Source: Candidatus Eiseniibacteriota bacterium (GTDB lineage Bacteria; Joyebacterota; Joyebacteria; Joyebacterales; Joyebacteraceae). Taken from it: a stretch of 52,349 bases of DNA. Under the pieces are notes generated by a model, which was not told where the DNA came from, searched no databases, and was given only the letters and a program-made list of their open reading frames with translations. The position numbers were made by a program, and so were the translations under genes. Shown here in pieces: positions 16,124-48,395 of this stretch (within the stretch, counting starts at the first letter, position 1; every line of letters starts with the position of its first letter). The stretch spans positions 1-52,349 of the forward strand of contig JAUWLR010000003.1 in NCBI GenBank assembly GCA_030613615.1. Direction: 5' to 3'.

Positions 16124-16167
16124 GCGCTTCACTCTCCGGTTGTCGCGCCTGATGCTTCTCTCAAGTC

Positions 16168-22047: not shown

Positions 22048-22094
22048 TGGTGGAGAAGTCTATTGGACCTGCCTACTTGAGGAAGGGGACCGCA

Positions 22095-34160: not shown

Positions 34161-35543
34161 TCACTGGTCCCTTGGGTTCTCGTCCGTGTGACCGTTCTCG
34201 TAGTGCCCGATGAGCTTGACCGGCGCGCCGTCGTCACCCAGCACGATCTCGAGCCGGAAGTACGGCACAGCGTCGAAACTGAACATGGTCTCGGTCATCG
34301 GCGTCGCGACGATCGGGTCACGGTCGTCGCGGTTGTAGAGCAGACGGCCACTCTCCACTCGAAGATGTCGGGGACCGTAGTCACCAGCATAGGACTCAAG
34401 CGTAGCGACGTCCACCTCAACCGGGTTCAGTCTGGCGTCGAGGCCCTGAATCGCCCAATCGAGCACGAAGGCCTCCTCGTCGCTCATGTCACGCTCGCGG
34501 AGCTTGCCCAACGCGTCGAGATACGCCGCGTCGAACGCCTGGTCGGCAGGAACCTCGATGTCGGGCGCGACGCCCGTCCCTTCCCAGTTCGTGCCCGAGA
34601 CGGGATTGATGGCCCGGCCGAACGACACGCGCATTCCCATGTTGAGGCTCGGGAAGAGATACGACGTGACCGGATGGGCGCCGCCGCCGGTTGTCTCCCC
34701 TACGATGGTGCCGCGCTCCAGGTTCTTGACGTTATAGGCGAACTCCTCGGCGGCCGAGAACGTGTGACTGCTCGTGAGGACGTAGAGTCCTGTGTCCACC
34801 ATCTTTGGCCCCGGCACGTAGGGCGCCGACCAGAACTGCTGGAGGGAATCGCCGTCGCGGATATAGAAGCTGTTCAGGTGCGTCGAGCCGTCGAGAAGGT
34901 AGGCCATGATGGTCTGAATGAGGGACGGGCTGCCGCCGCCGTTCTCAGTCAGGTCGATAATCAGCGCATCGGTGTAGCCCAGGAAGTTCATGGCCGCGAT
35001 GGCGGTCGGTCCCGAGAGCGACGTGTCGTTGAAACTGTTGAGCTTGAGGTAGCCGACGTTGCCATCGAGGATCTCCAGTTTCTTGAACTCGAAGTTGCGC
35101 TTCCTGCCTCGCTCGAAGGCCAGCTGATGCGCGACATCGGGGTCCTCGTCGCCCTGCTGGTACTCCTCCAGGAGCTCGTCGCTCATGAACTGCACGCCGA
35201 GGTGCCGGTCACTGCTGATCTCGCGCATGTCCTCCGTCAGCTGCCGAGCAAACTCCTGCACGGTCTCGAGCTCGTCGTACTCGCCCTCCTTGAGCTTGCG
35301 GCGAATGTGCTTCTCCATCTCCTTCGCTACGTCCTCGAAGACGTAGGTCCTGTTGAGAGCCCAGCTGACCGAGTCGACCGCGGCCGCCTTGAACTCGGCG
35401 CTCGCGGGCATCGAGTCGTCCTGCCCGACAACCATCCGCCGCTGAGCAAGGCACGGCGCCGCTGCCAGAAGAACGAACAGCGTCAGGAACACCAGAAGCC
35501 CCAGACGCCGTCTGAGCGACATCATCCGCTTGCCGAGCCTCAT
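34161..35543 (-). CDS. Secreted S41 family peptidase (IRBP-like)
   Basis: GNVGYLKL, IIDLTENGGGSP, TFSAAEEFAY, GETTGGGAHP, NWEGTGVAPD. Confidence 0.93.
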   Translation of the reverse strand: MRLGKRMMSLRRRLGLLVFLTLFVLLAAAPCLAQRRMVVGQDDSMPASAEFKAAAVDSVSWALNRTYVFEDVAKEMEKHIRRKLKEGEYDELETVQEFARQLTEDMREISSDRHLGVQFMSDELLEEYQQGDEDPDVAHQLAFERGRKRNFEFKKLEILDGNVGYLKLNSFNDTSLSGPTAIAAMNFLGYTDALIIDLTENGGGSPSLIQTIMAYLLDGSTHLNSFYIRDGDSLQQFWSAPYVPGPKMVDTGLYVLTSSHTFSAAEEFAYNVKNLERGTIVGETTGGGAHPVTSYLFPSLNMGMRVSFGRAINPVSGTNWEGTGVAPDIEVPADQAFDAAYLDALGKLRERDMSDEEAFVLDWAIQGLDARLNPVEVDVATLESYAGDYGPRHLRVESGRLLYNRDDRDPIVATPMTETMFSFDAVPYFRLEIVLGDDGAPVKLIGHYENGHTDENPRDQ

Positions 35544-35834: not shown

Positions 35835-36722
35835 CTACCTGATCGACAGCTCCATCCCACAGTCGTCGATGGCGAAGCAGATGCTCTCTCTGAAATGTGC
35901 CTTGTCTCGCACGAATGCTAGGTAAGGAGCGAGCTCTTTCCTCGCGGTCCAGTCGAGATTGTCGTGCGCCATGACCCAGGCGCCCTCTGGCAGGCGGTCG
36001 TAGATCTGTTTCAGTAGGATGAGATAGAGGCCGCTCACCGGCCCGAGCGGGTCTTTCTCCCCCGAAGCCTGGGCGGCGGCGCTGGCCCTGTTCTCGTACT
36101 TGGCCTCGAGATAGACGAAATCGAACGGGCCCTCGATGCGGTCGAGCGCGGTTCGCGCGTCCTCTGCGATGAGCTCGACCTCCGACACGTCCTCGAGCTT
36201 CTTGAAGTTGGCGCGAGCCTCCCTGACCATGTCGGCGTCCACGTCGATGCCGATGATCCGCTCCGCGGCGTAGGCCCTGTTGGGACCGATGCACGGCCCC
36301 GCGAACCAGCCGAGCGTGTAGCCCCAGAAGCTGCCGAGCTCGAGCAGATGCGCGGGCCGCCTCACGCTCGTCAGCATGTACATCAGCCGCTCCATCGTCG
36401 GGCTCAAGCTGGTCCACGACCCCTCGAACTTCTCCTTGAGCCGGGCGCGGTGCACATCAAGCGCGAGCCGGTCGTAGTCGGCCGAGACCGGCACGTGGCC
36501 TTCGCTCTTCAGGAGCTCGAGTGCCGAGTCGACGATCTTCGACTCCTGGGCGGTCCGCCCGAGCCGGTAGGCGAAGTACGGGTCGCGATGCGCGACCTCG
36601 CTGCGCAGCCCGTCGGGCGCGTTCTCATTGAACGCTGCGTCCGGATGCACGAGTCCGTCTGCCTTCATCTTCTCGAGGGCGAGCGCAATCGCCTCCCTCG
36701 ACGGGTGAAACGTCAGGGCCAT
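35835..36722 (-). CDS. Class I SAM-dependent (O-)methyltransferase with N-terminal extension
   Basis: LLELGSFWGYT, IGIDVD, AEDA, FDFVYLEA, VMAHD. Confidence 0.85.
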   Translation of the reverse strand: MALTFHPSREAIALALEKMKADGLVHPDAAFNENAPDGLRSEVAHRDPYFAYRLGRTAQESKIVDSALELLKSEGHVPVSADYDRLALDVHRARLKEKFEGSWTSLSPTMERLMYMLTSVRRPAHLLELGSFWGYTLGWFAGPCIGPNRAYAAERIIGIDVDADMVREARANFKKLEDVSEVELIAEDARTALDRIEGPFDFVYLEAKYENRASAAAQASGEKDPLGPVSGLYLILLKQIYDRLPEGAWVMAHDNLDWTARKELAPYLAFVRDKAHFRESICFAIDDCGMELSIR

Positions 36723-36766
36723 GGTGCCCTCCGCCGTGTGATGTCTGTAGCCGTCCTGCCCGGTTG

Positions 36767-37156
36767 CTACTCTGACTCGACTGTCACGACCGGCGTCCTG
36801 TTCGCATCGAAGACGCGGATGGTGTCGTCATGCAGCAGGACCCAGAACGAGTAGATGCCCAGCGCCGTTCCGAAGGGTATGTCGATGAGGTCGAAGGCCC
36901 CGACTATCAGCGCGAGGATCCTCGCCCACCGCCTGCGCATCAGGAGCGCGATGCCCGCGATGAGCCCCGGGACCGACAGCACGATCAGGAACGTGCCGAG
37001 GCCAATGCCCACGGCCGTCAGGATAGTCATGGCCGTCGGGTCGCCCGTGAGGCATCCCACGCTCGACAGGACACCCATGATGATGAAGCCCACTACGAGC
37101 CCCAGAACGTGGTAAGCGATGAAGAGTACACCAAGCAGCGTCACGTGCTTGTCCAT
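36767..37156 (-). CDS. Hypothetical 3-4 TM membrane protein
   Basis: Hydrophobic helices, WARIL...IPFGTALGIYSFWVL; RBS AAGGAGG; start is 37156 or 37162. Confidence 0.8.
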   Translation of the reverse strand: MDKHVTLLGVLFIAYHVLGLVVGFIIMGVLSSVGCLTGDPTAMTILTAVGIGLGTFLIVLSVPGLIAGIALLMRRRWARILALIVGAFDLIDIPFGTALGIYSFWVLLHDDTIRVFDANRTPVVTVESE

Positions 37157-37299
37157 GTTCACTTGTCCCTCCTTTTAGTATCGCATTCCCGATGCCGCAC
37201 CGCGCGAGGTGCGCTTTCCATCTATGACACCTCGATGGCGCGGTTGGTTTGGCGGTTGTTTACATGTCGTCTGGCCTTCGCCCGCGGCCGCAGGCCGCA

Positions 37300-38301
37300 C
37301 TAGGCGCTCTTCTTGACCTCCGGTATCTTCTCCCCCTCGCGCGGCTCTCTCAACACCTTCCTGAAATCCACCCACGCGGGCCGGGCCTCGAAGCCGAGCT
37401 GCAGGTTGAGGCCGAACATCGGGTTGTTCTCCTCGTTGTCGGTCTCGATTATCGTCGCGCCGTAGTCGCGCGCGAATCTGACGCCGCTGACCTTGAGCGC
37501 GGTGGCGATGCCCTTCCGCCTGTGACTTCTGACAACACCGGTAAGACCCGTGTGGAGCTTGTGTTTCTCCACCTGCGACGTCCAGAACCCGGTCAGCCCT
37601 ACGTACCTCCTTTCGTCGATGGCGACGAAGTGCGCGCTGGCGTCGTAGTTGGGTGAATCGAATCGCGACGCGAACTGCTCGAAGCTCACCCTGGTCGGCG
37701 GCTCCGGCAGCGGCACGTCCATCCAGCACTCGTTCTCGAGTTCGTACCAGCTCCGCTTCCAGTCCGGGTCGCGTGCGGGAAGGTCCGGGACGTTGACTAT
37801 CTCGATACCTTGCTCCCTCACGTGCTCTTCGACACCCTCGAACTTCGCGAAGTCGAACGTCTGTGGATTCAGGTGTGAGACGGGGTAGCGCATGGTCCGT
37901 ACGAACCCGCGCTTCGTGAGGAAGCGAATGAAATCCGGTTTGTCCTCGCGAGTGTCCGCCGTGAAGAAGAGCGGGTCGAGCGCGGCGAGGCCGGCGACCA
38001 CGTGGTCGTACATCGCCGTGCCGTAACCCATGCGCGTGTAATCCGGATGCACATCGACACCGACGAAGTACTTGCCAGGGACGTGCGTCCACTCGCTTTC
38101 GCCGCAGCTCGAGAACGCCACGATCTCCCCATCGATCTCCCCTACCACACGCCTGAACAGGTACTTCGGGTTCCGGTGCTTGTCGCGGTGCTGCCAGCTT
38201 TCCGGTGAGGAGAGCTCCTCCGGCCAAATGGCGTTCGCTATGTCGACGCAGGCTCGGTACTCCTCGTCGGTACCAGCGAACGGTCGTATCTTGATTGTCA
38301 T
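37300..38301 (-). CDS. Two-domain GNAT N-acetyltransferase (array member 8)
   Basis: VHPDYTRMGYGTAM; TGVVRSHRRKGIATALK; TDNEENNPMFGLNLQLGF. Confidence 0.92.
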   Translation of the reverse strand: MTIKIRPFAGTDEEYRACVDIANAIWPEELSSPESWQHRDKHRNPKYLFRRVVGEIDGEIVAFSSCGESEWTHVPGKYFVGVDVHPDYTRMGYGTAMYDHVVAGLAALDPLFFTADTREDKPDFIRFLTKRGFVRTMRYPVSHLNPQTFDFAKFEGVEEHVREQGIEIVNVPDLPARDPDWKRSWYELENECWMDVPLPEPPTRVSFEQFASRFDSPNYDASAHFVAIDERRYVGLTGFWTSQVEKHKLHTGLTGVVRSHRRKGIATALKVSGVRFARDYGATIIETDNEENNPMFGLNLQLGFEARPAWVDFRKVLREPREGEKIPEVKKSA

Positions 38302-38373
38302 TGTCAGGTCCTCTTGCGCCACGCTGTAGTTACACGCGGCGAGCCTGTGGTATTCGTCGGTTGCGGAGCCGGG

Positions 38374-39360
38374 CTAGTCCGTGCCGGCGACGGCCTTGTC
38401 AGCCGCACCCAGCTCCTTCCTGAACTGAAGCCAGGCCTTGGTCGGAACGAACCCGAGCCGCATGTTGAGATCGTACATCGGGTTATTCTCCTCGTTGTCT
38501 GTGACGATCACCTTAGCGCCCCGTTCCTTCGCAAACTCGTGGGCGCGCACCTTGAGCGCGGTCGCTATGCCGCGCCTACGGTGGCTCCGCACGACGCCGG
38601 TGAGTCTCGTGTAGAACTCGCCCTTCTTGACGCGCCTGTCCCAGACACTGCTCATTCCGACGTAGCGGCCACCGTCCAGCGCAAGGAAGTAGCCCTCAGG
38701 GATGAAGTCCGGATGTTTGAAGCTCTTCTCGAATTCGGAGAACGGCTCGTTGTGCAGCACATCGTCGTCCGGCACGTCGGGGATGATATCACCGTGCAGC
38801 TCCCACGTCTTCCGCATCCAGTCGGGGTCGCGCTTCGCAATCTCGCTCGCGGCCAGAATCTCGATGCCCGATGCGTGGACGCTCTCCACGACACCCGCGA
38901 ACTTCGCGGGCTCGAATGAAGCGAGGTCGAGTTCCGAGTCCTGCTCCTTCATGGAGATCCGGAATCCCCGCTGCTTGAGGAAGGCGATGCCGGCCTCGTG
39001 GTCCTCGCGCGTGAACGATTGGAGGATCTCGGGCTCATGCACCTCCAGGTGCTCGAGTATGCCGTCGAAGAGCGCCCGACCGACCCCCTGGCCCTGACGG
39101 CCGGGGCGAACCTGCGCGTAGACCAGGAACTTGCCCGTCGCCGCCGAGTCGGCCTCCTCGCGGAAGTAGCCCGTCGCCACGATGTCGCCGTCGTCCTCCG
39201 CGACGAGCCGCCCGAACGGGCTCATGGGGTCACGGCTCTCCGCGTTGTAGCGGTACATCTCGGCGGTCTTCGGGTACTCCGGCCAATTGGCCGTCCAGAT
39301 GGCGGCCGTGGCCTCGTAGTCGGCATCGGACTCGTTCATCGCTCTCACGTGCAGTGTCAA
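38374..39360 (-). CDS. Two-domain GNAT N-acetyltransferase (array member 7)
   Basis: VRPGRQGQGVGRAL; TGVVRSHRRRGIATALK; TDNEENNPMYDLN; probable TTG start at 39360. Confidence 0.9.
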   Translation of the reverse strand: MTLHVRAMNESDADYEATAAIWTANWPEYPKTAEMYRYNAESRDPMSPFGRLVAEDDGDIVATGYFREEADSAATGKFLVYAQVRPGRQGQGVGRALFDGILEHLEVHEPEILQSFTREDHEAGIAFLKQRGFRISMKEQDSELDLASFEPAKFAGVVESVHASGIEILAASEIAKRDPDWMRKTWELHGDIIPDVPDDDVLHNEPFSEFEKSFKHPDFIPEGYFLALDGGRYVGMSSVWDRRVKKGEFYTRLTGVVRSHRRRGIATALKVRAHEFAKERGAKVIVTDNEENNPMYDLNMRLGFVPTKAWLQFRKELGAADKAVAGTD

Positions 39361-39380
39361 CTCCCGTCCTCCGTTGCACC

Positions 39381-40382
39381 TCATTCGGCCGCGTCGCCCT
39401 CACGCCCACCGGCCTCTCCGCCGTCGCCCCCCCGGTGTTTCCGCATGTGCACCCACCCCGGCGTCGGCTTGAACCCCAGTTTGACGTTCAGCGGGTACAT
39501 CGGGTTCTTCTCCTCGTTGTCCGTGTCCACGAACTGCGCCTCGGTCGTCCGCGCCTTCGTGAGCGCGTGGACCTTGAGCGCGGTCGCGATGCCCTTCCGC
39601 CGGTGGCTCCTGATGACGCCGGTCAGGTCGGTCTGGAGCTTCGTGGGTTCGGCCAGGTTCAGCTCGAGCATGCTGACGCCCACGTACTCATCACCATCCA
39701 GCGCCACGAAGAACCCCTCCGGGAAGAATGTAGGCTTGTCGAAGGTCTGCCTGCAGTAGACCTCGAACTCGCGCTTCTTCGGCTCGTCGACCTCGGGCAC
39801 GTCCAGCGAGAGCAGCCAGTCGAGTTCCCAGAGCTTCATCCTCCAGTCGGAATCCTCTTCCTTGAGCTCCGTGAGCGGAACGATGCGGACGCCCGATTCC
39901 CTCACACGCTCGACGACGTCTGCGAACTTCGAGGCATCGAACTCCGCGAGCGTCAGACGCGAGTTCTGCCCACGCATCACCTGCTCGTAGCCTCGCTTCG
40001 TAAGGAAGCTCACCGCGTCGGCCTTGTCCTCACGTGTCCACGAGTCGAAGATGGTCGGTTGTCTCTCTGAGAGCACGCCCACGACGTGGTCGTAGATGGC
40101 CTTCCCGTATCCCCTGCGCTGGTGGTCAGGGTGAACCTGCACGTAGATCCAGAACTTGCCGGGAACCGGCGTCCACGACGACTCGCCGAACGAGCACGAG
40201 CCGACGGGCACACCGTCAACCTCAAGGATGACACGCTCCAGCATGTAGCTCTGGTCCCGTGCGTCGTCCCGGTGCTTGAGAAGCTCCGGGAGCTCCAGTT
40301 CGTCCGGGAAGACCGCGTTGGCGATGTCGATGATGATACCGTAGTCGTCGTCGCTCCAGTTGAACGGTCGTATATCTGCCAT
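39381..40382 (-). CDS. Two-domain GNAT N-acetyltransferase (array member 6)
   Basis: VHPDHQRRGYGKAI; TGVIRSHRRKGIATALK; TDNEEKNPM. Confidence 0.92.
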   Translation of the reverse strand: MADIRPFNWSDDDYGIIIDIANAVFPDELELPELLKHRDDARDQSYMLERVILEVDGVPVGSCSFGESSWTPVPGKFWIYVQVHPDHQRRGYGKAIYDHVVGVLSERQPTIFDSWTREDKADAVSFLTKRGYEQVMRGQNSRLTLAEFDASKFADVVERVRESGVRIVPLTELKEEDSDWRMKLWELDWLLSLDVPEVDEPKKREFEVYCRQTFDKPTFFPEGFFVALDGDEYVGVSMLELNLAEPTKLQTDLTGVIRSHRRKGIATALKVHALTKARTTEAQFVDTDNEEKNPMYPLNVKLGFKPTPGWVHMRKHRGGDGGEAGGREGDAAE

Positions 40383-40412
40383 GGTGTTGTCCCTGTCGGT
40401 CAGTTTCGGATG

Positions 40413-41411
40413 TTACCCTTCGACCCTCTCCCCCAGCTTCTTAATAAAGATGAGCCACGCGGGGACCGGCTTGAACCCCAGCCGGACGTTCAGGTCGTAC
40501 ATCGGGTTGTTTTCCTCGTTGTCTGTCTGTATCACTCTCGTACCGATGTCACGTGCGAACTCTATCGACCGAACCTTGAGCGCCGCTGCGATACCGCGCC
40601 GCCTGTGCGGCCGCGCGACGGCCGTGAGGCCGGTGCCCAGACTGCCCGGGTCGGCGAGCCGCTTCCACAGACTCGTCGCCGCCACGATCTCATCCCCATC
40701 GAACGCGAGCAGTATGGCGCCTGGAAGCCTGTTGGGCGCGTTGAGCTCGCGCTCAAACACGTCGTACGTGAACTCCATTCGGTCCACGAATATCGGCACG
40801 TCCTCGAAGAACTCCACGTACTTCTCGTGGGCCTTCCGCCGCGCGTCCGGGTCCTCCGCTTCGTATTCCTCGAACGTCTTCACCGTGATGTCGGACTCCT
40901 CGAACCGCGCCACGAGGCCCGCGAACGGCGCCGCGTCAAAGGACGCGACGTCCAGACGCGAGACCTGCTGCCTCTGCTTCTGCTCGAAGCCCCGGTCGGT
41001 CAGGAACTTCGTCGCGTGCGGCTGGTCCTCGCGGGAATCAGACACCAGGCTCAAAGGCTTGCGCTCGAGTTCGTTGAGGCGCTCGACGATGTGGTCGTAG
41101 ATCGCCGTGCCGATGCCCCTCCTCTGGTACTCGGGCAGCACTCGGATCTGCACGCCGTACATGCCCGGCTCATTGGCCCACTCGGGCTCGCGGTAGATCG
41201 CGGTCGCGACTATCTTCCCCCCGAGTTCTGCCATGAGCCGCTGGAAGAAGTGCCTCCCGCTGCGAGTCCGGTTCGAGTAACGCATGCCCTCTACCGACGT
41301 AGGCTCGTCCGGCCAGATCGCGTTCAATATGGCGACGGACGCGTCGTAGTCACGGTCGGTGTCGTCGAACGGCCTGATGGTCAGCCCTTCGGGGCTCTTC
41401 ACGTCGCTCAT
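40413..41411 (-). CDS. Two-domain GNAT N-acetyltransferase (array member 5)
   Basis: VLPEYQRRGIGTAI; TAVARPHRRRGIAAALK; TDNEENNPM. Confidence 0.92.
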   Translation of the reverse strand: MSDVKSPEGLTIRPFDDTDRDYDASVAILNAIWPDEPTSVEGMRYSNRTRSGRHFFQRLMAELGGKIVATAIYREPEWANEPGMYGVQIRVLPEYQRRGIGTAIYDHIVERLNELERKPLSLVSDSREDQPHATKFLTDRGFEQKQRQQVSRLDVASFDAAPFAGLVARFEESDITVKTFEEYEAEDPDARRKAHEKYVEFFEDVPIFVDRMEFTYDVFERELNAPNRLPGAILLAFDGDEIVAATSLWKRLADPGSLGTGLTAVARPHRRRGIAAALKVRSIEFARDIGTRVIQTDNEENNPMYDLNVRLGFKPVPAWLIFIKKLGERVEG

Positions 41412-42415
41412 CGATCCTCCTGTGCGGGCTCACCCGCCGGATTGTTCTTCGCAAGCTCGTTCTTGTACGCCAGCCACGACGGGATCGGCTTGAAGCCCAG
41501 GCGGACGTTCAACAGGTACATGGGGTTTCTCTCCTCGTTGTCCGTGCGGATGGATTCGAAGCCCATCTCTTTCGCGCCCATGATCGCGCGGACCTTGAGC
41601 GCGGTCGCGATGCCCCTCCGCCTGTGCGTACGCGCAACGCCGGTGAGCCCTGTCTGAAGGAGCTTCGGGTCCGCGAGATTCCGCCAGAGCTGCGACATGC
41701 CAACGTACCTGCCGGCGTCGACGGCGATGAACCACGACTCCGGCATGCCGTCCGGTCCATCGACTTCCGCCATGTACTGCTCGAACGGCATCTTGGTGAG
41801 CGGGTCCGGGAACGGCACGTCCTGAAGGTACTCCCAGCCGGCCTCGTACGCCTTCCTCAGCGCATCAGAATCCTCGGCCATCAGCTCTCTGAACGAGCGG
41901 ACGTCGACCTCGGAAGCATCGACACGCGTGAGCGTCTCTTCGAAGGGCGCCGAGTCGAACGACCGGACATCGAGCTTCGAGAACTGGTTGCGCTGCGCCA
42001 CGCGGAACCCGCGCTTCTCGGCGAAGCGCATGCTGTCGGGGTCGTCCTCCCGCGCGTACGCCGTCAGGACCGTCGGCTTGGGGTCGCGCCCCGCGAGCAC
42101 GCTCCAGATGTGGTCGTAGACCGCGGTGCCCCACCCGAGCCGCCGGTACTCCGGGATGACCTCGACACCGATCATGTACTTGCCCGGGTAGTGGCTCCAC
42201 TCGGCCTCTCCGTAATAGGCGGCAGCGACGGGCGTGCCGTCCAGCTCTCCGATGAGACGCTGGAACAGATACTGCTTCTGGCGGGTCTCGTCGTAATGCC
42301 GCCTGGTCTCGACGGCGACCGGCTCGTCGGGGAAGGCCGCGTTCCAGACGTCCACAATAGCCTGGTAGTCCTCGTCGGAATCGTCGAACGGCCTGATGGC
42401 GAACCCCTGACGCAT
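41408..42415 (-). CDS. Two-domain GNAT N-acetyltransferase (array member 4)
   Basis: VIPEYRRLGWGTAV; TGVARTHRRRGIATALK; TDNEERNPM. Confidence 0.92.
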   Translation of the reverse strand: MRQGFAIRPFDDSDEDYQAIVDVWNAAFPDEPVAVETRRHYDETRQKQYLFQRLIGELDGTPVAAAYYGEAEWSHYPGKYMIGVEVIPEYRRLGWGTAVYDHIWSVLAGRDPKPTVLTAYAREDDPDSMRFAEKRGFRVAQRNQFSKLDVRSFDSAPFEETLTRVDASEVDVRSFRELMAEDSDALRKAYEAGWEYLQDVPFPDPLTKMPFEQYMAEVDGPDGMPESWFIAVDAGRYVGMSQLWRNLADPKLLQTGLTGVARTHRRRGIATALKVRAIMGAKEMGFESIRTDNEERNPMYLLNVRLGFKPIPSWLAYKNELAKNNPAGEPAQEDR

Positions 42416-42416
42416 C

Positions 42417-43346
42417 TCAGACCTCCTTCAGCCACTGCCGCAAGACCCTGTAGTCGGTGAAGCCCGCTGACGCGTAGCACCTGTGGGCGGCCTCGGACTC
42501 CGAGCCGACGAACCCCATCGTGGCTCCCATCTCCCTGGCTCGCCTGAGTCCCTCATGTATGCACGCCACAGCCAGGCCTTTCCTCTGGTGGGCCGGCGAC
42601 GTCGCGACGGGCTCGCATGCGGCCGTCAGTGTGATGTCATCAAACCAGACGGTCGCGAACGACGCAACCGCCCCATCCGGCGCCACCGCGACGATGTCAA
42701 GATCGCGGCGGTAGAGCGGCGCCTTCTGGATGTTGCGATACCAGGTGACGTCCGCCCTGTTGTCGTGCGCCTGCGCCGGGTCGTCCGGGTGAAACGCCAG
42801 CCCGGACGCGTAGCACCGCTCCAGGAGCTCGGCCCCATCATTCATCGGGCGCACAACGAACCCCGCGGGCACCACCGGCTCGGGAATCTCTCCCTGGAGC
42901 GACATGTGGCGCGCGTGCTCCTCGTACCTGGGTTCGAACCCACGGCGCTCGAGGATTGTCTCTCGCGTCGTGTCGCCCTTCGTGGCCCAGACGGCCACTT
43001 TGTTCTTGCCATCCTTGGCCACGGTCCAGAGCCGCTTCTCCGCCACGGCGATCATCTCGTCCTCAAGTTCCTCGGCTCTGAACCCCGGATGCATCTGGAG
43101 GAAGGCATTGCCCTTGCCCTCGGCGTTGAGCACAGCTACGAGCTTCCCGTCCGACGTCTCCCACAGGAGGACCTTCTCCTCCAGGGGACCCTGGTCGAGG
43201 TTCGCGACGCCGTGCCACACCCAGTACTCGAACCTGTACACCTGCCAGTTGAGCTCCTCGCGGTCGTCCAGGAGGAACGTCTCACGTAAGTAGGCCCGGA
43301 TCTTCCAGAAGTCGGGAGCCTCATATGCCCTCATGGTGAGTTTCAT
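42417..43346 (-). CDS. GNAT N-acetyltransferase of a different subfamily (array member 3)
   Basis: EPVATSPAHQRKGLA...AAHRCYASAGF; lacks the TDNEEN motif. Confidence 0.88.
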   Translation of the reverse strand: MKLTMRAYEAPDFWKIRAYLRETFLLDDREELNWQVYRFEYWVWHGVANLDQGPLEEKVLLWETSDGKLVAVLNAEGKGNAFLQMHPGFRAEELEDEMIAVAEKRLWTVAKDGKNKVAVWATKGDTTRETILERRGFEPRYEEHARHMSLQGEIPEPVVPAGFVVRPMNDGAELLERCYASGLAFHPDDPAQAHDNRADVTWYRNIQKAPLYRRDLDIVAVAPDGAVASFATVWFDDITLTAACEPVATSPAHQRKGLAVACIHEGLRRAREMGATMGFVGSESEAAHRCYASAGFTDYRVLRQWLKEV

Positions 43347-43467
43347 GTATTCCCTGTCCTGTGCTTGTGCCGCGCGTGGCGGCTGGAATCAAACCGGGGC
43401 CGCCGCTCCTTTGCCTCATGGCGCGGGAGCGGCGCCGCCCCGATCGTGATGAATGGTCCTGCCGGCA

Positions 43468-44493
43468 TCAAGCGCCCTCCGACGCGCTGACCACCCGGGC
43501 GGAGCCGTCGGCGTCGACCTTGCCCGCGACCTCAGCCGCTCCGTCGAACGGGCGCCGGTACTCGGTCCACGCGGGAGTGGGCTTGAAGCCCAGCCGCATG
43601 TTGAGCTCGAACATGGGGTTCTTCTCCTCGTTGTCCGTCTCGATGAACTTCGCACCGTGCTCCTTCGCGCGCGAGAACCCGTGCACCTTGAGCGCCGTGG
43701 CGATGCCCTTCCGCCTGTGGCTCCTGACGACGCCCGTGAGTCCGGTATAGATCTTCGCGGGGTCCGCCTCGGACAACCAGAGACCGGTGTAGCCCACGAG
43801 CCGGTCGCCGTCACGAGCGAACCAGTGCATGTTCATCCGGTATCCGGGGCTGTCGAACCGCTTGCACCAGATCTCGAACGTGGGCCGCGTAGGCTCGTCG
43901 ATGAATGGCACATCCTGGAAGAGCTCCCATCCGAGGTCGTACCACGAGCGTTTCCAGTCGGGGTCGATCTCGGCGAGCTCCGTCAGACACTGGATCTCCA
44001 CGCCGAGCTCCTTCATCTTACCCGGCGTCCAGTCGAACTCCGACAGGTCGAGCGCCTCGACGTCGAGCCGCGAGACGGCGTACCGCATCGCGAACTCGTA
44101 CCCGCGCTTTGTGAGGAAGCGGACGTAGTCGGGCTTGTCGTCGCGCGTCCACGTCATGAGCGTGTCGGCGCCGCCCTTCGCGAGTTCGCCCATGAGGAAG
44201 TCGTAGAACTGACCACCGTGGCCGTGGTTCTGGTGGTCGGGATGGACCTCGACGAACACGAGGTACTTGCCCGGCACGTGGCTCCAGGTGCAGTGCCCGT
44301 AGACGCCGGACGCCACTATCTTCCCGTCCACCTCTCCCACGAACCGCGCGTGCGTGTACTTCGGGTCGCGGCTCGCGTCCTCATACTTGAACTCTGCCAG
44401 ACCCTGTTTCTCGTCGGGCCACAGCGTGTTGGATATGTCGAGCACCGCACGGTACTCGTCGTCGGTCTTCTTGAACCTGCGTATCGTCATCAT
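43468..44493 (-). CDS. Two-domain GNAT N-acetyltransferase (array member 2)
   Basis: VHPDHQNHGHGGQF; TGVVRSHRRKGIATALK; TDNEEKNPM; ATGA overlap with the upstream gene. Confidence 0.92.
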   Translation of the reverse strand: MMTIRRFKKTDDEYRAVLDISNTLWPDEKQGLAEFKYEDASRDPKYTHARFVGEVDGKIVASGVYGHCTWSHVPGKYLVFVEVHPDHQNHGHGGQFYDFLMGELAKGGADTLMTWTRDDKPDYVRFLTKRGYEFAMRYAVSRLDVEALDLSEFDWTPGKMKELGVEIQCLTELAEIDPDWKRSWYDLGWELFQDVPFIDEPTRPTFEIWCKRFDSPGYRMNMHWFARDGDRLVGYTGLWLSEADPAKIYTGLTGVVRSHRRKGIATALKVHGFSRAKEHGAKFIETDNEEKNPMFELNMRLGFKPTPAWTEYRRPFDGAAEVAGKVDADGSARVVSASEGA

Positions 44494-45464
44494 GTTGGTT
44501 TGTCTCCATTCGTGCTCTTGAGTTCTTTCCTGTAGGTCCACCAAGCCGGCACCGGCTTGAAGCCGAGACGGACATTGAGGTCGTACATCGGGTTGTTCTC
44601 CTCGTTCTCCGTTCTGATGATCCGGGCTCCACGGTCGCGCGCGAACTCGATCGATCGCGCTTTGAGCGCGGTCGCTATGCCCTTCCTGCGCTGGCTTCTC
44701 ACGGTACCGGTCAGATTCGTGTGGAGCTTGTCCTTCTCGGCCATGGACTGCCACAGGCTCGTCACGCCTATGAACCTGCCGTCCACGATCGCGACGAAGT
44801 GCGCCTCCGGAATGAAGCCCGGGTGCGTCAGCCACTTCACCCACTGCTCGAAAGGCTGCTTCGTCACCGGATCGTCGGTCGGAACATCCTGCATCAGCTC
44901 GTGCTCGAGCTCCCACATCTCTGGCTTCCAGTCGATTCCGTCGGCCTCGAGTTCCGGCACGGTTCGTATCTCGACCCCGATCTCGGCCATGCGTTCGCCC
45001 GTCCAGGCGAACGGCTCAGGATCGAAGTCGGCGACAACGAGCTCGGACATCTGGTCGCGCAAGGTCTTCTTGTACCCACGCTTCTCCAGGAAACTCATCC
45101 CCTCCTGCTTGTCCTCCCGGGCATGAGACTCGAAGATCGTGGGACCGCGCTCCGCCAGATCACCCATGATGTGGTCGTAGAGCGCCGTCCCGATCCCGGT
45201 CCTCTGGTGATCCGGGTGAACCTGCACGCTGATGAAGAACTTCCCGGGCACGTGAGTCCACTCGGACTCGCCGTAGAGGGCGCTGGCGACTATGCCACCG
45301 TCAATCTCCACGACCAGGCGCTGAAGGTAGTACCTCGGGTCGCGCCTCTTGTCGTTCTCCTTCGTGCCCTCCGGCACGCTCGGCCTGTCAGGCCAGACGG
45401 CGTTAGAGATGTCCGCGAGTGCCTGGTAGTCGTCGTCGCTGTAGTTGAACGGTCGTATCATCAT
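44490..45464 (-). CDS. Two-domain GNAT N-acetyltransferase (array member 1)
   Basis: VHPDHQRTGIGTAL; TGTVRSQRRKGIATALK; TENEENNPM; ATG 45464 after GGGAG. Confidence 0.92.
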   Translation of the reverse strand: MMIRPFNYSDDDYQALADISNAVWPDRPSVPEGTKENDKRRDPRYYLQRLVVEIDGGIVASALYGESEWTHVPGKFFISVQVHPDHQRTGIGTALYDHIMGDLAERGPTIFESHAREDKQEGMSFLEKRGYKKTLRDQMSELVVADFDPEPFAWTGERMAEIGVEIRTVPELEADGIDWKPEMWELEHELMQDVPTDDPVTKQPFEQWVKWLTHPGFIPEAHFVAIVDGRFIGVTSLWQSMAEKDKLHTNLTGTVRSQRRKGIATALKARSIEFARDRGARIIRTENEENNPMYDLNVRLGFKPVPAWWTYRKELKSTNGDKPT

Positions 45465-45503
45465 CGTTAGCAACTCCCAAGTTGTCGGTTCCTTTCGGTT
45501 GAC

Positions 45504-45689
45504 CTAGCGGGCAGGCTTGGTCTCGAGCTTGATCTTGATATTGAGAACGCGTATCACGTTCATGCTTTTGCTTCTTCCTCTGACGGCCAGGACCGCCCTG
45601 TCGGGGTCCGGCCACGCTGCGTTCGAGACGTCGAGCAGGTTTTGATACCGCCTGTCGCTCTCGTCCTGTGCGCTGATCAGATACTCCAT
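45504..45689 (-). pseudogene. 61-aa GNAT remnant or mini-protein (GNAT N-terminus fused to C-terminus)
   Basis: DESDRRYQNLLDVSNAAWPD resembles NYSDDDYQALADISNAVWPD; LNIKIKLETKPAR resembles LNLQLGFEARPAW; has its own RBS AAAGGA. Confidence 0.65.
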
Positions 45690-46045
45690 GTTCTGTTCTT
45701 CCTTTCGCGTGGACGCGGCGCGCCCACATCGCTCATGAGTTCAAGTGTCGTGTCGGCCAGCTTCGCCTCGCGCCAATCCACCTTCAGCGTCCGGACGGTC
45801 AGCTCGGCCGTCTGCTTGTCGCGGGAGCGGCTCGCGCGCGTCTGGCGCGGCTCCTCCCCGACGGCTCCCTTGGGGGGACGTAGGCTCATCAACAACATGC
45901 TCGCTGCCAGGTTCATCATCCCGATAACAAGCAGCCTCATCGTGTGATGGCCGAACATCGCCCCCAGGCAACACGCCCCTCCGGCTGCGGCGAATGCCAC
46001 CGCGGCGAGACGGTACCTCGCATGTGCTGTGATGTTCTTAGCCAT
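45677..46045 (-). CDS. Hypothetical small membrane protein, first full gene of the GNAT operon
   Basis: RBS GAGGAG plus ATG 46045; two hydrophobic segments followed by a charged tail. Confidence 0.6.
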   Translation of the reverse strand: MAKNITAHARYRLAAVAFAAAGGACCLGAMFGHHTMRLLVIGMMNLAASMLLMSLRPPKGAVGEEPRQTRASRSRDKQTAELTVRTLKVDWREAKLADTTLELMSDVGAPRPRERKNRTWSI

Positions 46046-46230
46046 AGTGTGCTCCTCGTTAGCGCTCGCTAGATCCGGCCTGCCCGCCGTCCTGCCTGCC
46101 CGAGTGTCGGACAAACAGAATGCTCCGTCACCCGATACACTCTGTTCGAGATCGGCAGCAACGAGTTGCAGGCCCCGCACTATCTCTGAGGGGCCGCTAT
46201 GCTTACACCTTGGCTAAACAGAAGAGCTAG

Positions 46231-46290
46231 CTACGAAGGTGGGCCCTCGAGGTGCGATCTCGAGCGTATCGGTCGTTCGATGTTAATCAC
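46231..46290 (-). CDS. Putative leader (attenuator/arrest) peptide MINIERPIRSRSHLEGPPS
   Basis: AGGAG-N7-GTG, 19 codons including CGA/ATA/AGA, ending GPP-S-stop; coding region complementary to the downstream UTR. Confidence 0.6.
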   Translation of the reverse strand: MINIERPIRSRSHLEGPPS

Positions 46291-46345
46291 CCGGCATCTC
46301 CTCTCGAAGGTTCATGGGTTGTACGACACGAACGGTGTGATTGGT

Positions 46346-46375
46346 ATGCTACTGGCCTGCGCCTCGCCCCGTCAA
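46346..46375 (-). promoter_or_regulatory. Sigma70-like promoter of the leader/GNAT operon
   Basis: TTGACG-N18-TAGCAT on the minus strand. Confidence 0.62.
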
Positions 46376-46560
46376 GCACTTTTTGTGCCGACACGACTAT
46401 CGGCGCATCATAGACTCTGACTGATGACGCGTCCGCCGGGTTGAACCGCGTGTCGAGTTCTTTCTTCCGACCCGTCGACCGCCGACATGCGGTGTCGCTC
46501 CTGCCTCGCGACCACTGGTTGTCTCACCTCACGACCACTGGGCGTCGTCCCCGAAATGAA

Positions 46561-46824
46561 TCATGACTCATCCACCTCGACGATCTTCTCGACGACGATC
46601 GAACACTTGGTGACGAGGGCCGCGATGGCGCCGACCGCCGCGAGCTGTGGCAGTATCAGTGCGCCGGCAACGCCCAGCGTAAGGGGGAATTCTATGAGGC
46701 TCTCCCCCTTTTCACTCTTGATGGTCACGCGCCTGATGTTCCCCCCGCGGACGATCTGCTTGACGGTCTCGATGAGCTTCTCGCCTGTGACCTCGAATTC
46801 CTCAATGCGTGTCTTCTCGGACAT
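46561..46824 (-). CDS. DUF4342 domain protein
   Basis: EEFEVTGEKLIETVKQIVRGGNIRRVTIK...EFPLTLG...LAAVGAIAALVTKCSIVVEK. Confidence 0.9.
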   Translation of the reverse strand: MSEKTRIEEFEVTGEKLIETVKQIVRGGNIRRVTIKSEKGESLIEFPLTLGVAGALILPQLAAVGAIAALVTKCSIVVEKIVEVDES

Positions 46825-47027
46825 GTGAGCCTCCATTCAGCTGGGAAACGGGCTGCCCCGGCCGGCGTAGTGCGACTCTCGAGGCCAAGGCTGCGCCCGG
46901 ACTGCCGCAAGTTCCGTGTGTGCGCCCGCTCTTCGTCGCCTCATCAGACACTACGCATGAGCCGGAGGTTTCATTCGGTGTGCAGGCAGCTGGCTCGCTG
47001 GGCAACGCGTCAAGTAGGCAGCCCCGC

Positions 47028-48395
47028 CTAGGCCGGTATCCGGGGACTGATGGCCGCGATCTCAGCGGACTCCTCGTCCCGATCGGCCTCGCGCGCGACC
47101 CGGACGCCCTCATCGACGTCGACACGCGTGAGGACGATGGCGCCCGCGATGAAGAAGATGATGACCGAGAGGATGGAGAACCGGCTCTGGCCGGTGACCT
47201 GGCTCACGAGCCCGAAGACCAACGGCCCGACGATGCCGGCGAACTTGGCGGAGAGGCTGAAGAACCCGAAGAACTCGGCCGAGCGGCTCTTGGGGACCAT
47301 CGACCCGTAGAGCGAGCGCGACAGCGCGCCGGCGCCGCCCTGCACGGTGCCGACGACGAGCGCGAGGACGTAGAAGTGGAGCGCGGTCTTCATGAAGAAC
47401 GCCGAGAAGCTCACGCCCGCATAGATGGCGAGCGTCAGCAGTATTGAGCGCTTCGCCCCAAACCTGCCGGCGTGCCGGCTGAACAGAAACGTGAACGGCA
47501 CGGCGACGAACTGGGTGATGACGAGCGCGAGCATCATATCGGTGATGCCGATACCTATCTCATCGCCGTATGCGGTCGCCATGCGGATGATGGTGCCGAT
47601 CCCGTCGCTGTAGACCCAGAAGGCGACGAGGAACACGGAGAGCTGCCTGTACTTCCGCACCTCCCCGAAGGTGCGTGCCAGGCGCGAGAATCCCTCCAGC
47701 AGGACGGCGCGATCGGGCCCGCTCCTCCTCTTCGCGTTGGCGCGCGGCTCCGGGACTCTCGCAAAGAAGGGGATGGAGAAGATCGCCCACCAGATGGCCA
47801 CGCTCAGGAAGGACGCCCTGAGCGCGAAGCCGATGTCGGGCATTCCGAACCACTCGGGGTGCGAGACCCAGAGCACGTTGATGGCAAGCAGCGTGCCTCC
47901 GCCCAGGTAGCCGATGGCGTAGCCGCGCGATGAGACCGCGTCGATGGTCTCCTTCGTCGTGATGTGCGGAAGCAGCGATTCGTAGAAGACTATGGAGCCG
48001 GAGAATCCGATGGCGGCGATCATGTACAGGAGCGATGCCAGCGACCACGTGTCGTCGCCTATGAAGATGAACGCCGCGGTCGCCACGATGCCGATCCCGG
48101 CGAAGATGCCGAGGTACCTCTTCTTCCCCCCGGTGAAATCGGAGACGGCTCCCAGGAGCGGCGAGATGACCGCGCCTATCAGGAGCGCGGCGGCGGCGGT
48201 GTAGGCCCAGAACGCGGTCGCGTCACGGACGGGAAGTCCGGCGTTTATCACGAGCGAACGGAAGAACGGCGGGAAGAGCGCCGACATGAGCGTCGTCGCG
48301 AATGGCGAGTTCGCCCAGTCGTACATGCACCACGCGGTGATGACGCGGTCGCTGATCCCCACAGAGAGGCTGCGTGGCGGCTTGGGCACGTCCAT
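47028..48395 (-). CDS. MFS transporter, UMF1/ATG22-like family
   Basis: WCMYDWANSPF, FYESLLPHI, SSRGYAIGYLGG, ALSRSLY, EFFGFF. Confidence 0.92.
   Translation of the reverse strand: MDVPKPPRSLSVGISDRVITAWCMYDWANSPFATTLMSALFPPFFRSLVINAGLPVRDATAFWAYTAAAALLIGAVISPLLGAVSDFTGGKKRYLGIFAGIGIVATAAFIFIGDDTWSLASLLYMIAAIGFSGSIVFYESLLPHITTKETIDAVSSRGYAIGYLGGGTLLAINVLWVSHPEWFGMPDIGFALRASFLSVAIWWAIFSIPFFARVPEPRANAKRRSGPDRAVLLEGFSRLARTFGEVRKYRQLSVFLVAFWVYSDGIGTIIRMATAYGDEIGIGITDMMLALVITQFVAVPFTFLFSRHAGRFGAKRSILLTLAIYAGVSFSAFFMKTALHFYVLALVVGTVQGGAGALSRSLYGSMVPKSRSAEFFGFFSLSAKFAGIVGPLVFGLVSQVTGQSRFSILSVIIFFIAGAIVLTRVDVDEGVRVAREADRDEESAEIAAISPRIPA

Follow-up and report, generated by a model that had tools for sequence, protein, structure and literature searches.

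A conserved array of tandem-GNAT genes behind a lineage-specific leader with a 19-codon upstream ORF in an uncultured Candidatus Eisenbacteria bacterium

The window, i.e., the whole 52,349-nt stretch of DNA analysed here, belongs to the 2.87-Mb MAG of a Candidatus Eisenbacteria member, an uncultured bacterium of marine sediment, and ORF calling revealed eight intact GNAT genes, G1–G8, on its minus strand (37300–45464). The array is a tight, conserved same-strand unit of intact paralogous tandem GNATs and, together with its leader, looks like a sensor-controlled enzyme panel. The explanation favored here, to which slightly better than an even chance is given, is that old tandem-GNAT paralogs and one unrelated GNAT lie behind a lineage-specific cis-regulatory leader in which the ribosome on a short upstream ORF would act as the sensor.

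Seven of the genes encode paralogs of 324–341 aa, namely, G1 (44490..45464, 324 aa), G2 (43468..44493, 341 aa), G4 (41408..42415, 335 aa), G5 (40413..41411, 332 aa), G6 (39381..40382, 333 aa), G7 (38374..39384, 336 aa), and G8 (37300..38322, 340 aa), with 44–50% identity to G1. G3 (42417..43346, 309 aa) is a different, more divergent tandem GNAT, unrelated to the family of the other seven. The preliminary description of an eight-GNAT minus-strand array with tight junctions, containing seven intact two-domain paralogs of about 330 aa, was thus borne out. Start/stop overlaps of 4 nt occur at 44490–44493, 41408–41411, and 39381–39384, the last of which had been missing from that description; G4 and G3 are separated by 1 nt (42416), and the remaining intergenic gaps measure 121, 30, and 51 nt. 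No intrinsic terminator-like site was found on the minus strand between 37000 and 47100. The array is probably co-transcribed; contigs from RNA libraries span the region, but DNA carry-over is possible and such contigs cannot prove a single transcript.

The Pfam domain Acetyltransf_1 scored above cut-off in all eight genes; the match fell into two stretches, and hence into two GNAT domains, in seven of them and covered only the C-terminal domain in G3. The full-length match of G3 to the NCBIfam MshD model was weak and sub-threshold (26.8 bits; cut-off 163.1). The seven paralogs belong to one large tandem-GNAT family of ∼2,171 representatives (E ≤ 1e-30), members of which carry generic names in the source databases; no literature on any member was found, nor was a further family copy detected elsewhere in the 2.87-Mb genome. 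All seven retain 24 invariant family residues, among them the CoA loop R-R-x-G-x-A of the C-terminal domain (R259, R260, G262, and A264 in G1). As in other tandem-repeat GNATs, both domains carry the acyl-CoA loop motif, which presumably has the role known for it in GNATs generally. The AF2 model of G1 (pLDDT 95.3) gave tandem GNATs as the best Foldseek matches (7q3a, 2wpw, 3tt2, 5kf1, and 1ozp; TMq 0.69–0.76, E 4e-19 to 3e-16), the identity of the tandem-repeat GNATs to the paralogs being only 14–20% and that of any characterised enzyme among the matches 12–20%. MAB_4324c (7q3a), ORF14 (2wpw/2wpx), and MshD (1ozp, 2c27) likewise carry two GNAT domains in one chain, and the Clostridium glucosamine N-acetyltransferase (5kf1) and Sphaerobacter 3tt2 are tandem-repeat GNATs with the layout of the paralogs (∼320–340 aa). 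MAB_4324c is the closest structural neighbor of the modeled fold, while ORF14 of the clavulanic acid cluster was the top sequence-profile match (E 3e-12); the MshD model scored the family at 16–27 bits (cut-off 163). Hence, the seven paralogs are predicted to be two-domain acyl-CoA-dependent N-acyltransferases of the MshD/ORF14/MAB_4324c-like type. Unlike the known tandem GNATs, the family possesses a characteristic block conserved near the C-terminus (consensus TDNEENNPMYDLNVxLGF) and commonly occurs in tandem arrays.

In the phylogeny, the orthologs of each paralog from the genomes of the genus form a separate clade with 100% support. The paralog lineages are therefore older than the genus, some of them older than the split between genera, and the array is no recent product of expansion in situ, the point for which a phylogeny had been suggested. 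Each of the seven is maintained by purifying selection, as dN/dS ranged from 0.13 to 0.25 in the 11 ortholog pairs computed (G1, 0.24–0.25; G2, 0.22–0.23; G4, 0.17–0.21; G5, 0.22–0.24; G6, 0.13 against genome G004; G7, 0.23; G8, 0.19). The notion that GNATs with tandem domains are usually found alone or as pairs did not hold for this family, at least two tandem copies being present at 42 of its 77 loci; lineage-specific tandem duplications recur in it, and an Anaerolineae locus contains seven tandem copies. The gene order of the array is shared by other genomes of the genus, no copy being assigned as the G6 ortholog at locus L014 of genome G006. G3 keeps its position within the genus, but the gene is internally deleted in G006, gives split matches in G003 and G004, and is affected by contig breaks in G001, G002, and G007. 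Across phyla, conservation of the array neighbors is absent.

Upstream of G1, a Shine–Dalgarno-like GAGGAG (minus strand, 46298..46303) is placed 7 nt 5′ of a 19-codon leader ORF (minus strand, 46231..46290), which starts with GTG at 46290, ends with TAG at 46231–46233, and encodes, after the start, INIERPIRSRSHLEGPPS. The leader ORF is a genuine conserved feature, since SD, start, 19 codons, and stop are aligned in three genera. The AGGAG is invariant in 15/15 sequences from these genera, the frame is open in all 10 genus-level sequences, and the ORFs of genera g3 (MSDISQASRVISRLERPVL) and g5 (MSDITQPVCVRTHLERPTT) have the same length and aligned position as in the window; a 1-nt insertion in one g5 variant (L039) results in a longer ORF. 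The region from SD to stop is gap-free in 14 of the 15 aligned sequences, whereas its flanks are indel-rich, and the peptide end carries an H/R-L-E-R/G-P motif common to the three genera. A search of related genomes for the array plus leader, as suggested earlier, was carried out with the pattern SD + start + 30 nt + CGYRCCTCGRGRG. Of 31 genomes of one Eisenbacteria family, 16 contained the pattern, each of them exactly once: 7/8 in g1, the genus of the window (the window's own genome included), 5/6 in g3, and 4/5 in g5. The reversed-pattern control gave 0 matches. Wherever array coordinates are known, the pattern lies directly 5′ of the array (G042 falls outside this comparison). It was absent from g2, g4, g6, g7, and g8 among the 31 genomes and had no match in the two Chloroflexota groups examined.

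Control by leader peptides, i.e., by upstream ORFs, is established for the erm, cat, and cmlA resistance leaders, tnaC, and the WhiB7 uORF; ErmCL has 19 residues. The array leader resembles these systems in that a short ORF preceded by an SD lies a few hundred nucleotides upstream of the genes, in that the surrounding sequence can form alternative helices, and in that the peptide carries a conserved motif close to its C-terminus. It differs from them in the lack of a match to known leaders or Rfam, of runs of regulatory codons, of a terminator, and of a predicted SD-masking switch, and in its restriction, among the 31 genomes, to three genera, all within a single Eisenbacteria family. In the favored model, the heart of the leader would be the SD and the presumably translated 19-codon ORF within a structured 5′ UTR, and the behavior of the ribosome on this ORF would set transcription or translation into the array. 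The likely event would be a stall close to the conserved H/R-L-E-R/G-P end, for which a small molecule or translation stress could be the trigger, and acyltransferases that differ in acceptor specificity may thereby be switched on together as a panel. Different acceptors for the individual enzymes, and a link to peptidases, are purely conjectural.

The leader could instead function as a structured, riboswitch-like cis-acting RNA or a separate small RNA in which the 19-codon ORF is incidental, a reading considered rather unlikely. The ORF lies in a conserved noncoding block of ∼350 nt (minus strand, 46057..46410), single-copy in the window's genome, with 84% mean column identity and invariant runs of up to ∼50 nt in seven genus genomes. 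The predicted fold of the leader was more stable than that of shuffled sequences on the sense strand only (MFE z = −2.76, against −0.86 for the antisense strand), in agreement with the structured UTR described earlier. The core (minus strand, 46127..46319), which includes SD and leader ORF, is predicted to form a long-range helix (46246–46272/46132–46165) and hairpins at 46201–46244 and 46168–46197, and the 3′ half of the ORF falls within predicted alternative helices. Core identity between genomes is 87–97%, compared with 68–80% at four-fold sites of G1/G2; judged from these alignments, the block evolves more slowly than synonymous sites within the genus. The peptide sequence itself appears to evolve nearly neutrally, as single-step changes within genera comprise 6 synonymous and 19 nonsynonymous ones and variable columns are spread 14/14/13 over the codon positions. 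On the side of a translated leader ORF, synonymous wobble changes were observed at codons 2, 3, and 5 in g5 and at codons 2 and 5 in g3, with an additional one at codon 9 in G044. Codons 6–19 in g1 show 0 synonymous and 2 nonsynonymous changes, so that RNA-level constraint fits as well as coding constraint; for the RNA reading, it counts that the nucleotides are here more constrained than the coding content.

Further points in favor of an RNA element are a hairpin 3′ of the leader stop with two covarying pairs across genera, a possible SD:CACCTC pairing invariant in 15/15 sequences, and the concentration of variable columns in predicted loops (36/80 unpaired against 16/114 paired), a test that is partly circular as this alignment also served to predict the structure. 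Within the genus, 45 of 57 predicted pairs of the core are invariant and one covaries. On the other side, the three genera scarcely align beyond the leader ORF, leaving 13 consensus pairs of which two covary, and the part shared between genera coincides exactly with SD, start, 19 codons, and stop. The block had no Rfam match at E ≤ 1, and the covariance model R1, built on the core, retrieved nothing outside the genus at E < 0.01. The cross-genus comparison favors the leader idea; attenuation as its putative mechanism is weakened by the lack of a minus-strand terminator and of a consistent SD switch and by the nearly neutral evolution of the peptide. When the leader was masked in silico, as a crude folding analog of ribosome occupancy, the downstream SD did not become consistently more accessible across 14 sequences. 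A rut-like C-rich, G-poor sequence follows the leader stop in g5 only, not in the genus of the window.

Less probable still is a more specific function, in which the array would serve as an inducible panel for resistance to, or detoxification of, amine antibiotics that target the ribosome (aminoglycoside- or streptothricin-like), the sensor being a drug-stalled leader ribosome as with the erm and cat leaders and the WhiB7 uORF. In size, the leader ORF matches the classic resistance leaders, and recurrent lineage-specific tandem duplication is compatible with an arms race; the paralogs, however, are old and under purifying selection, and rapid diversification was not seen. The NCBIfam matches to AAC(6′), AAC(3), and STAT models were weak, all resistance models scoring far below threshold (16–25 bits against cut-offs of 140–420). 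Eis/AAC-type aminoglycoside acetyltransferases share the GNAT superfamily with the paralogs, with weak profile matches and a lower-ranked fold match (TMq ∼0.5), and Eis is likewise multi-domain; Eis differs in having a third domain and ∼400 aa. The nearest fold, MAB_4324c, is a WhiB7-regulon GNAT that is induced by ribosome-targeting drugs and acetylates amikacin mildly (PMC10727445), an analogy that also fits the favored model. Against the resistance reading stand the low identity to characterised enzymes and the absence of a predicted SD-sequestering switch.

Regulation at the DNA level only, by a promoter and an operator for a protein regulator with the ORF and folds functionless, is improbable. 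The promoter proposed earlier exists as a box, TTGACG-18 nt-TAGCAT (minus strand, 46346..46375), the sole such match in 10 kb; as shuffled sequences gave 1.3 matches on average, the box alone is no better than chance, and its −35 element is deleted or altered in 4/7 genomes of the genus. In support of such regulation, the GCTTGACG box is conserved in three genera, with a TA..AT hexamer 17–18 nt downstream in 4/4 g3 and 4/4 g5 sequences (TTGACC in one), ∼55–62 nt upstream of the leader ORF as estimated from the alignments, and the promoter-like box of g1 is surrounded by an invariant block together with a GCGCC...GGCGC inverted repeat. Conservation, however, continues for ∼280 nt downstream of the box, being strongest within and after the ORF, and fold stability is strand-specific, both of which speak against control at the DNA level only. 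An origin of the array as an artefact of assembly or binning, through collapsed or chimeric repeats, is hardly credible: although the contigs of several relatives end within the array, mostly in G3, and dS against G004 is unequal between its two halves, all 30 bins of 36700–47100 were covered at even depth (∼11–31) by contigs that stem from two DNA runs of two different studies, contig pieces with 0–1 mismatches bridge the junctions G5/G4/G3, G3/G2, G2/G1, and G6/G5, other genus genomes show identical gene order, and paralogs of only 44–50% identity are too divergent to collapse.

Between the leader and G1, a 122-aa ORF (minus strand, 45677..46045) that is preceded by a good SD and encodes two hydrophobic segments corresponds to the small membrane protein of the preliminary description; it had no match in Pfam, NCBIfam, or PADLOC and is internally deleted in two of six aligned genus genomes (L012 of G001 and L014 of G006), with dN/dS of 0.34–0.58 against full-length copies. 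In g3, the first GNAT gene has an SD and a start similar to those of this ORF. The GNAT mini-ORF (minus strand, 45504..45689, 61 aa) is likewise present, but as a relic of a family member, comprising an N-terminal and a short C-terminal part; its residues 4–42 matched columns 12–50 of the paralog profile by hhalign (probability 92%, E 7.5e-7), and it is deleted in one of six genus genomes (L012) and shortened in L015. Judged from these comparisons, both ORFs are dispensable. Further upstream are genes for a 91-aa DUF4342 protein (minus strand, 46561..46836; PF14242, E 6e-24), syntenic in the genus and a conserved upstream ORF in relatives, and for an ATG22-like MFS transporter (minus strand, 47028..48395; PF11700, E 5.7e-68), which is syntenic in G006.

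The contig was used entire (52,349 bp) and comes from a genome (G000) of 2.87 Mb in 288 contigs that is 94% complete. It harbors eight ORFs on the minus strand, G1 to G8, extending from 45464 down to 37300. Adjacent genes overlap by 4 nt at 44490–44493, 41408–41411, and 39381–39384, and the remaining junctions consist of a 1-nt gap at 42416 and gaps of 121, 30, and 51 nt. All eight products matched the Pfam model PF00583 (Acetyltransf_1) with 36–72 bits (gathering cut-off, 20.7 bits), which places them in the GNAT superfamily, and seven of the eight contained two such stretches. The array of eight GNAT genes reported in the preliminary description was confirmed by the intact ORFs, the Pfam matches, and the junctions. 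Seven of the genes (G1, G2, and G4–G8) are paralogs encoding proteins of 324–341 aa with 44–50% identity to G1, and they are the sole copies of their tandem-GNAT family in the genome. G3 (309 aa; 42417–43346) is a tandem GNAT of another kind and more divergent; Pfam detected only its C-terminal domain, and its relatives in other genera are located away from arrays. Pfam for the seven paralogs, and AlphaFold2 and Foldseek for G1, revealed an MshD-like tandem-repeat architecture, i.e., two GNAT folds in a chain of ∼300–340 aa. None of the array proteins came near the cut-off of any NCBIfam equivalog model for MshD, Eis, AAC, or RimI. With the MshD model TIGR03448 (cut-off, 163.1 bits), the best score was 26.8 bits for G3, and the paralogs that matched scored 15.8–20.9 bits; with the Eis model NF002368 and the AAC(6'), AAC(3), and STAT models (cut-offs, 140–576 bits), the scores were 14.8–25.4 bits.

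The search of 1.84 billion proteins with a 40-member profile of the family yielded 2,171 representatives (clusters at 50% identity) at E ≤ 1e-30. In the source records they carry generic names ("GNAT family N-acetyltransferase", with an occasional automatic "mycothiol synthase"), and among the papers listed on tandem-GNAT and Eisenbacteria acetyltransferases none on this family or array was found. Among 77 loci from contigs of one genome per species, which cover at least 12 named phyla, at least two tandem copies were present in 42, at least three in 23, and at least four in nine, all these counts being lower bounds because many loci lie on short contigs. In named phyla other than Eisenbacteria, at least two copies were found in 19 of 50 loci, and the Anaerolineae locus L045 contains seven. 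Sister pairs within single loci (e.g., L060, L074, and L065/L066) represent independent duplications in the tree. Tandem multiplicity is a trait of the whole family, and the earlier premise that tandem-domain GNATs occur singly or in pairs is inapplicable to it. Two representatives of double length, P0121 (644 aa) and P0248 (639 aa), showed two full-length matches each and are either fused adjacent copies or read-through gene calls. For a large, multi-phylum, repeatedly duplicating family without a characterized member, any functional lead would be useful.

The authenticity of the array was evaluated with metagenomic contigs. All 30 bins of the region 36700–47100 were covered at even depth (∼11–31) by contigs from two DNA runs, each of a different study, several gene junctions were bridged by contig pieces with 0–1 mismatches, and the gene order was the same in other genomes of genus g1, to which the window belongs. 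As the seven paralogs are too diverged for an assembly collapse to be expected, that explanation of the array was not borne out. Near-identical DNA is present in cold-seep and marine-sediment metagenomes, and at least 84% of the sampled window words were found in five runs from two studies.

The history of the paralogs was followed in a FastTree phylogeny of 160 family sequences, comprising the seven from the window and 153 full-length tblastn matches from the 77 loci; matches with fewer than 280 aligned residues or with a stop were left out. Each of the seven paralogs fell into its own clade of g1 orthologs with 100% support. With the other Eisenbacteria genera numbered g2–g8, G1 clustered with G6 and the first gene of the three-gene g3 arrays, G2 with the last gene of the g3 and g5 arrays, G8 with the first gene of the g5 arrays, and G4 and G5 with inner genes of the g5 arrays. 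The deep branches were poorly supported, with phyla intermixed, and were not interpreted. These groupings indicate that the paralog lineages are older than genus g1 and that several are older than the split of the genera, so that a recent expansion in situ does not hold. The dN/dS ratio was 0.13–0.25 in all 11 ortholog pairs computed (all seven paralogs compared with G004, and four of them with G006, both g1 relatives), and all 24 columns that are invariant among 40 diverse family members are retained in all seven paralogs, which argues that every copy is functional. The array is an old, conserved feature of a large tandem-GNAT family prone to tandem multiplication. G3 appears less secure in the relatives: in G006 it has lost an internal stretch, and in G003 and G004 its matches are split. 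Contigs of G001, G002, and G007 end inside G3, and dS between G000 and G004 was 0.27–0.32 for G1–G2 and 0.53–1.06 for G4–G8; the shift and the contig breaks suggest either a mosaic that arose by recombination or bins of mixed strains, and the boundary would lie close to G3.

Approximately 1.1 kb separates G1 from the DUF4342 gene (46561–46836). Within it lies a single-copy noncoding block of ∼350 nt (46057–46410) common to seven of the eight g1 genomes and not found in the eighth, G007. It contains a 19-codon ORF (46231–46290, minus strand). The arrays of g3 (three tandem copies) and g5 (four) have conserved upstream regions of their own, and common to the three genera are an AGGAG box, a start codon 6–8 nt further on, exactly 19 codons, and a TAG stop in a TAGCT context. 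The predicted peptides are (V/M)INIERPIRSRSHLEGPPS in g1, MSDISQASRVISRLERPVL in g3, and MSDITQPVCVRTHLERPTT in g5. Most of the peptide is not common between the genera; an H/R-L-E-R/G-P motif is present in most sequences of all three, with C-L-E, L-G-R, and E-R-R as single-sequence variants. The stretch from the Shine–Dalgarno (SD) box to the stop is ungapped in 14 of 15 sequences from the three genera, while the flanks need many indels; only L039 departs from this, with one inserted nucleotide and a longer ORF. A genome pattern of the SD box, the start codon, 30 free bases, and CGYRCCTCGRGRG occurred exactly once in 16 of 31 genomes of the phylum, namely, in 7/8 of g1 (including G000), 5/6 of g3, and 4/5 of g5. 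It was absent from the g2, g4, g6, g7, and g8 genomes, the reversed-pattern control gave no match, and the matches lay directly upstream of the array wherever the array coordinates were known. A short upstream ORF with a ribosome-binding site, as expected of a leader peptide, is hence conserved in three genera, and this ORF with its leader, specific to the three Eisenbacteria genera, is new.

Upstream regions of g4 and g7 lacked the leader pattern, and those of two Chloroflexota groups showed no comparable upstream ORF. At the g4 locus L124 (G016:C12, ∼1052–1100), a 12-codon ORF with an SD box upstream of the GNAT genes ends in ...CCCACCTGCTAGC, resembling the stop context of the g1 leader, and may be a diverged leader. 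In the Caldilineaceae/Anaerolineales loci L057, L062, and L070, the two-gene arrays are preceded, at ∼75 nt from their first GNAT gene, by a conserved T-rich box, TTTTTTGATTT.ATGGACA.TTGATGC.ATATT, which is a different element from the g1/g3/g5 leader.

The mean column identity of the g1 leader block was 84%, with invariant runs of up to ∼50 nt. Its core (46127–46319) is 87–97% identical between g1 genomes as against 68–80% at four-fold sites of G1/G2, and is thus under purifying selection. The covariance model R1, built on this core, matched only the seven genomes of the genus when searched against 31 family genomes; its other matches had E ≥ 0.01 and lay away from arrays, in agreement with BLASTN of the leader element. 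An apparent second copy in G006 was merely a contig-end overlap. The scan of metagenomes for an invariant leader 20-mer gave only three further, near-identical copies, and Rfam cmscan of 36000–48000 gave no match at E ≤ 1. The segment upstream of the core seems to vary between strains; one contig from run X1 (DNA) and one from X20 (RNA library) join 46319 to 46491 or 46526, omitting the 5' module. The invariant block 46376–46411, upstream of the promoter-like box, may act at the DNA level as an operator and not as RNA.

The reading we prefer, with moderate confidence, is that of a translated regulatory upstream ORF within a structured leader. Its main rival, which appears unlikely, is a structured RNA carrying an incidental ORF, and conservation at the nucleotide level speaks for it. 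Several features argue against selection on the peptide: single-step changes in the ORF within genera comprised six synonymous and 19 nonsynonymous ones, the variable columns were distributed 14/14/13 over the codon positions without a third-position excess, and codons 6–19 of g1 showed no synonymous change; synonymous wobbles were found at codons 2, 3, and 5 in g5 and at codons 2 and 5 in g3, plus codon 9 in G044. Conservation therefore concerns the presence of the ORF, its length, and its position, along with a nucleotide block in its 3' half. The sense strand folded better than shuffled sequences (z = –2.76, with 1 of 100 shuffles as good; antisense z = –0.86), and the predicted folds combine a hairpin at the 5' end with a long-range helix and two further hairpins; the same CTCGAG segments can instead take part in an alternative local fold. 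Covariation within g1 was uninformative on this structure, as 45 of 57 pairs never vary; one pair covaried, and the observed score was reached by 23 of 500 shuffles. Variable columns were more often unpaired (36/80 vs. 16/114; Fisher p = 2.6e-6), a comparison that is partly circular since these very sequences had served to predict the structure. Even with an incidental leader, the array would be a clean case of long-term retention, with seven paralogs under purifying selection.

For the preferred upstream ORF, several modes of control were considered. No terminator-like site for intrinsic termination was found on the minus strand of 37000–47100. Folding with parts of the leader ORF forced single-stranded, as under ribosome occupancy, did not consistently change how likely the downstream SD box or start was to be unpaired across 14 sequences of the three genera; Erm-like unmasking would involve such a change. 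The C>G skew, computed as a test of tna-like Rho control, revealed a C-rich, G-poor rut-like tract after the leader stop (C 37–44%, G 18–24%) in g5, not in g1 or g3. Predicted alternative helices include leader codons 7–13 and are compatible with ribosome-dependent refolding. A more specific and doubtful proposal is that the 19-codon ORF encodes a new ribosome-arrest or sensor peptide ending in H/R-L-E-R/G-P, which, as part of a structured leader not described before, would sense a metabolite or translation inhibitor and induce a battery of tandem GNATs with distinct amine acceptors. If true, this would constitute an "acylation panel" under leader control in an uncultured phylum and the first functional handle on a family of more than 2,000 representatives. 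The conserved upstream ORF offers a concrete regulatory handle; its inducer would point to substrates. The leader, as peptide or RNA, is a candidate new cis-regulatory element in Candidatus Eisenbacteria, a phylum not known to have cultured members.

The promoter proposed at 46346–46375 is plausible but unproven. TTGACG-18-TAGCAT (46375–46346) was the only sigma-70-like match in 10 kb, which is the chance level, as shuffles give 1.3, and the -35 element is deleted or changed in four of seven g1 genomes. In its favor, counterparts consisting of GCTTGACG and a TA..AT hexamer 17–18 nt downstream are present in 4/4 g3 and 4/4 g5 sequences (one with TTGACC), and the box, as read off the alignments, lies ∼55–62 nt upstream of the leader start in the three genera. 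Contigs of the metatranscriptome-labeled runs X10 and X20, from one study, extended over all 30 bins with 90–99% identity, with DNA carry-over possible, and such contigs show neither transcript ends nor single transcripts. We infer from the gene spacing that the array may be co-transcribed.

The two small ORFs between leader and array, described earlier as a small membrane protein and a GNAT mini-ORF, are not necessary parts of the unit, as deletions occur in the relatives. The 122-aa ORF (45677–46045) has a good SD box and two hydrophobic segments and had no family match in Pfam, NCBIfam, or PADLOC; in G001 an internal segment of it is deleted in frame, in G006 its SD box, start, and 5' part are missing, and its dN/dS against full-length copies was 0.34–0.58, on few sites. 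Over residues 4–42, the 61-aa mini-ORF aligns with the N-terminus of the family (hhalign, E = 7.5e-7, probability 92%), and it ends in a stretch similar to the family's C-terminal strand, which marks it as a relic of a tandem-GNAT family member; G001 has lost it, and one other genome has a shortened version. In its SD box and start, the 122-aa ORF resembles the first GNAT gene of the g3 arrays, and thus a former first gene seems to have decayed in g1 directly behind the leader, leaving remnants there. Of the interpretation in the preliminary description, the conserved array and the upstream leader ORF stand, whereas the singly-or-in-pairs premise and the place of the small ORFs in the unit do not.

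The AlphaFold2 model of G1, obtained with a 40-sequence alignment (pLDDT 95.3, pTM 0.89), contains two β-α GNAT halves. Its best Foldseek matches were solved tandem GNATs (TMq 0.69–0.76, identity 14–20%), namely, MAB_4324c (7q3a; TMq 0.75), the closest structural neighbor, along with ORF14 of the clavulanic-acid cluster (2wpw), also the best sequence-profile match (E = 3e-12), a Sphaerobacter tandem GNAT (3tt2), a Clostridium glucosamine N-acetyltransferase (5kf1), and MshD (1ozp). In MshD, the C-terminal domain is catalytic. Fourteen of the 24 family-invariant residues lie within residues 252–302 of G1, i.e., in the C-terminal domain, and the likeness to MshD suggests that this domain may be catalytic in the paralogs. 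A set of acyl-CoA-dependent N-acyltransferases that differ in their acceptors would be consistent with the fold class, with the CoA-loop motifs, intact in both domains, and with the long retention of seven diverged copies. MAB_4324c is induced via WhiB7 by ribosome-targeting antibiotics and acetylates amikacin weakly (PMC10727445), which speaks, at low probability, for an array that senses and modifies drugs. An identity of 14–20% makes transfer of substrates from the solved enzymes impossible.

The window is rich in peptidases and related proteins. On the minus strand are a serpin (11825–13135), an S9 peptidase of 989 aa (13631–16600), an Rce1-like protease (28915–29649), a tricorn protease (30719–34057), and an S41 peptidase (34161–35543). 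On the plus strand are two paralogs of ∼830 aa with papain C1, lectin-like, and FlgD-Ig domains (22047–24560 and 24896–27388), one of which carries a type IX secretion sorting tail; both are probably secreted proteases. An ATG22-like transporter gene is present upstream of the array. Outside genus g1, no conserved association of the peptidases with the array was found, and as the neighbors differ between lineages, a peptide or amino-acid link is a guess. PADLOC anti-phage models gave no match for G1, G3, G8, the 122-aa ORF, the DUF4342 protein, or a 131-aa ORF. The product of a gene two positions downstream of G8 (35835–36722, minus strand), which has a methyltransferase domain, matched the PADLOC model mad2 (E = 3.4e-14). 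The search for conserved neighbors at 72 loci revealed none common to different phyla; an HAD-like protein recurred at 14 loci and a 371-aa protein at 11, and the representatives examined all belonged to Chloroflexota.
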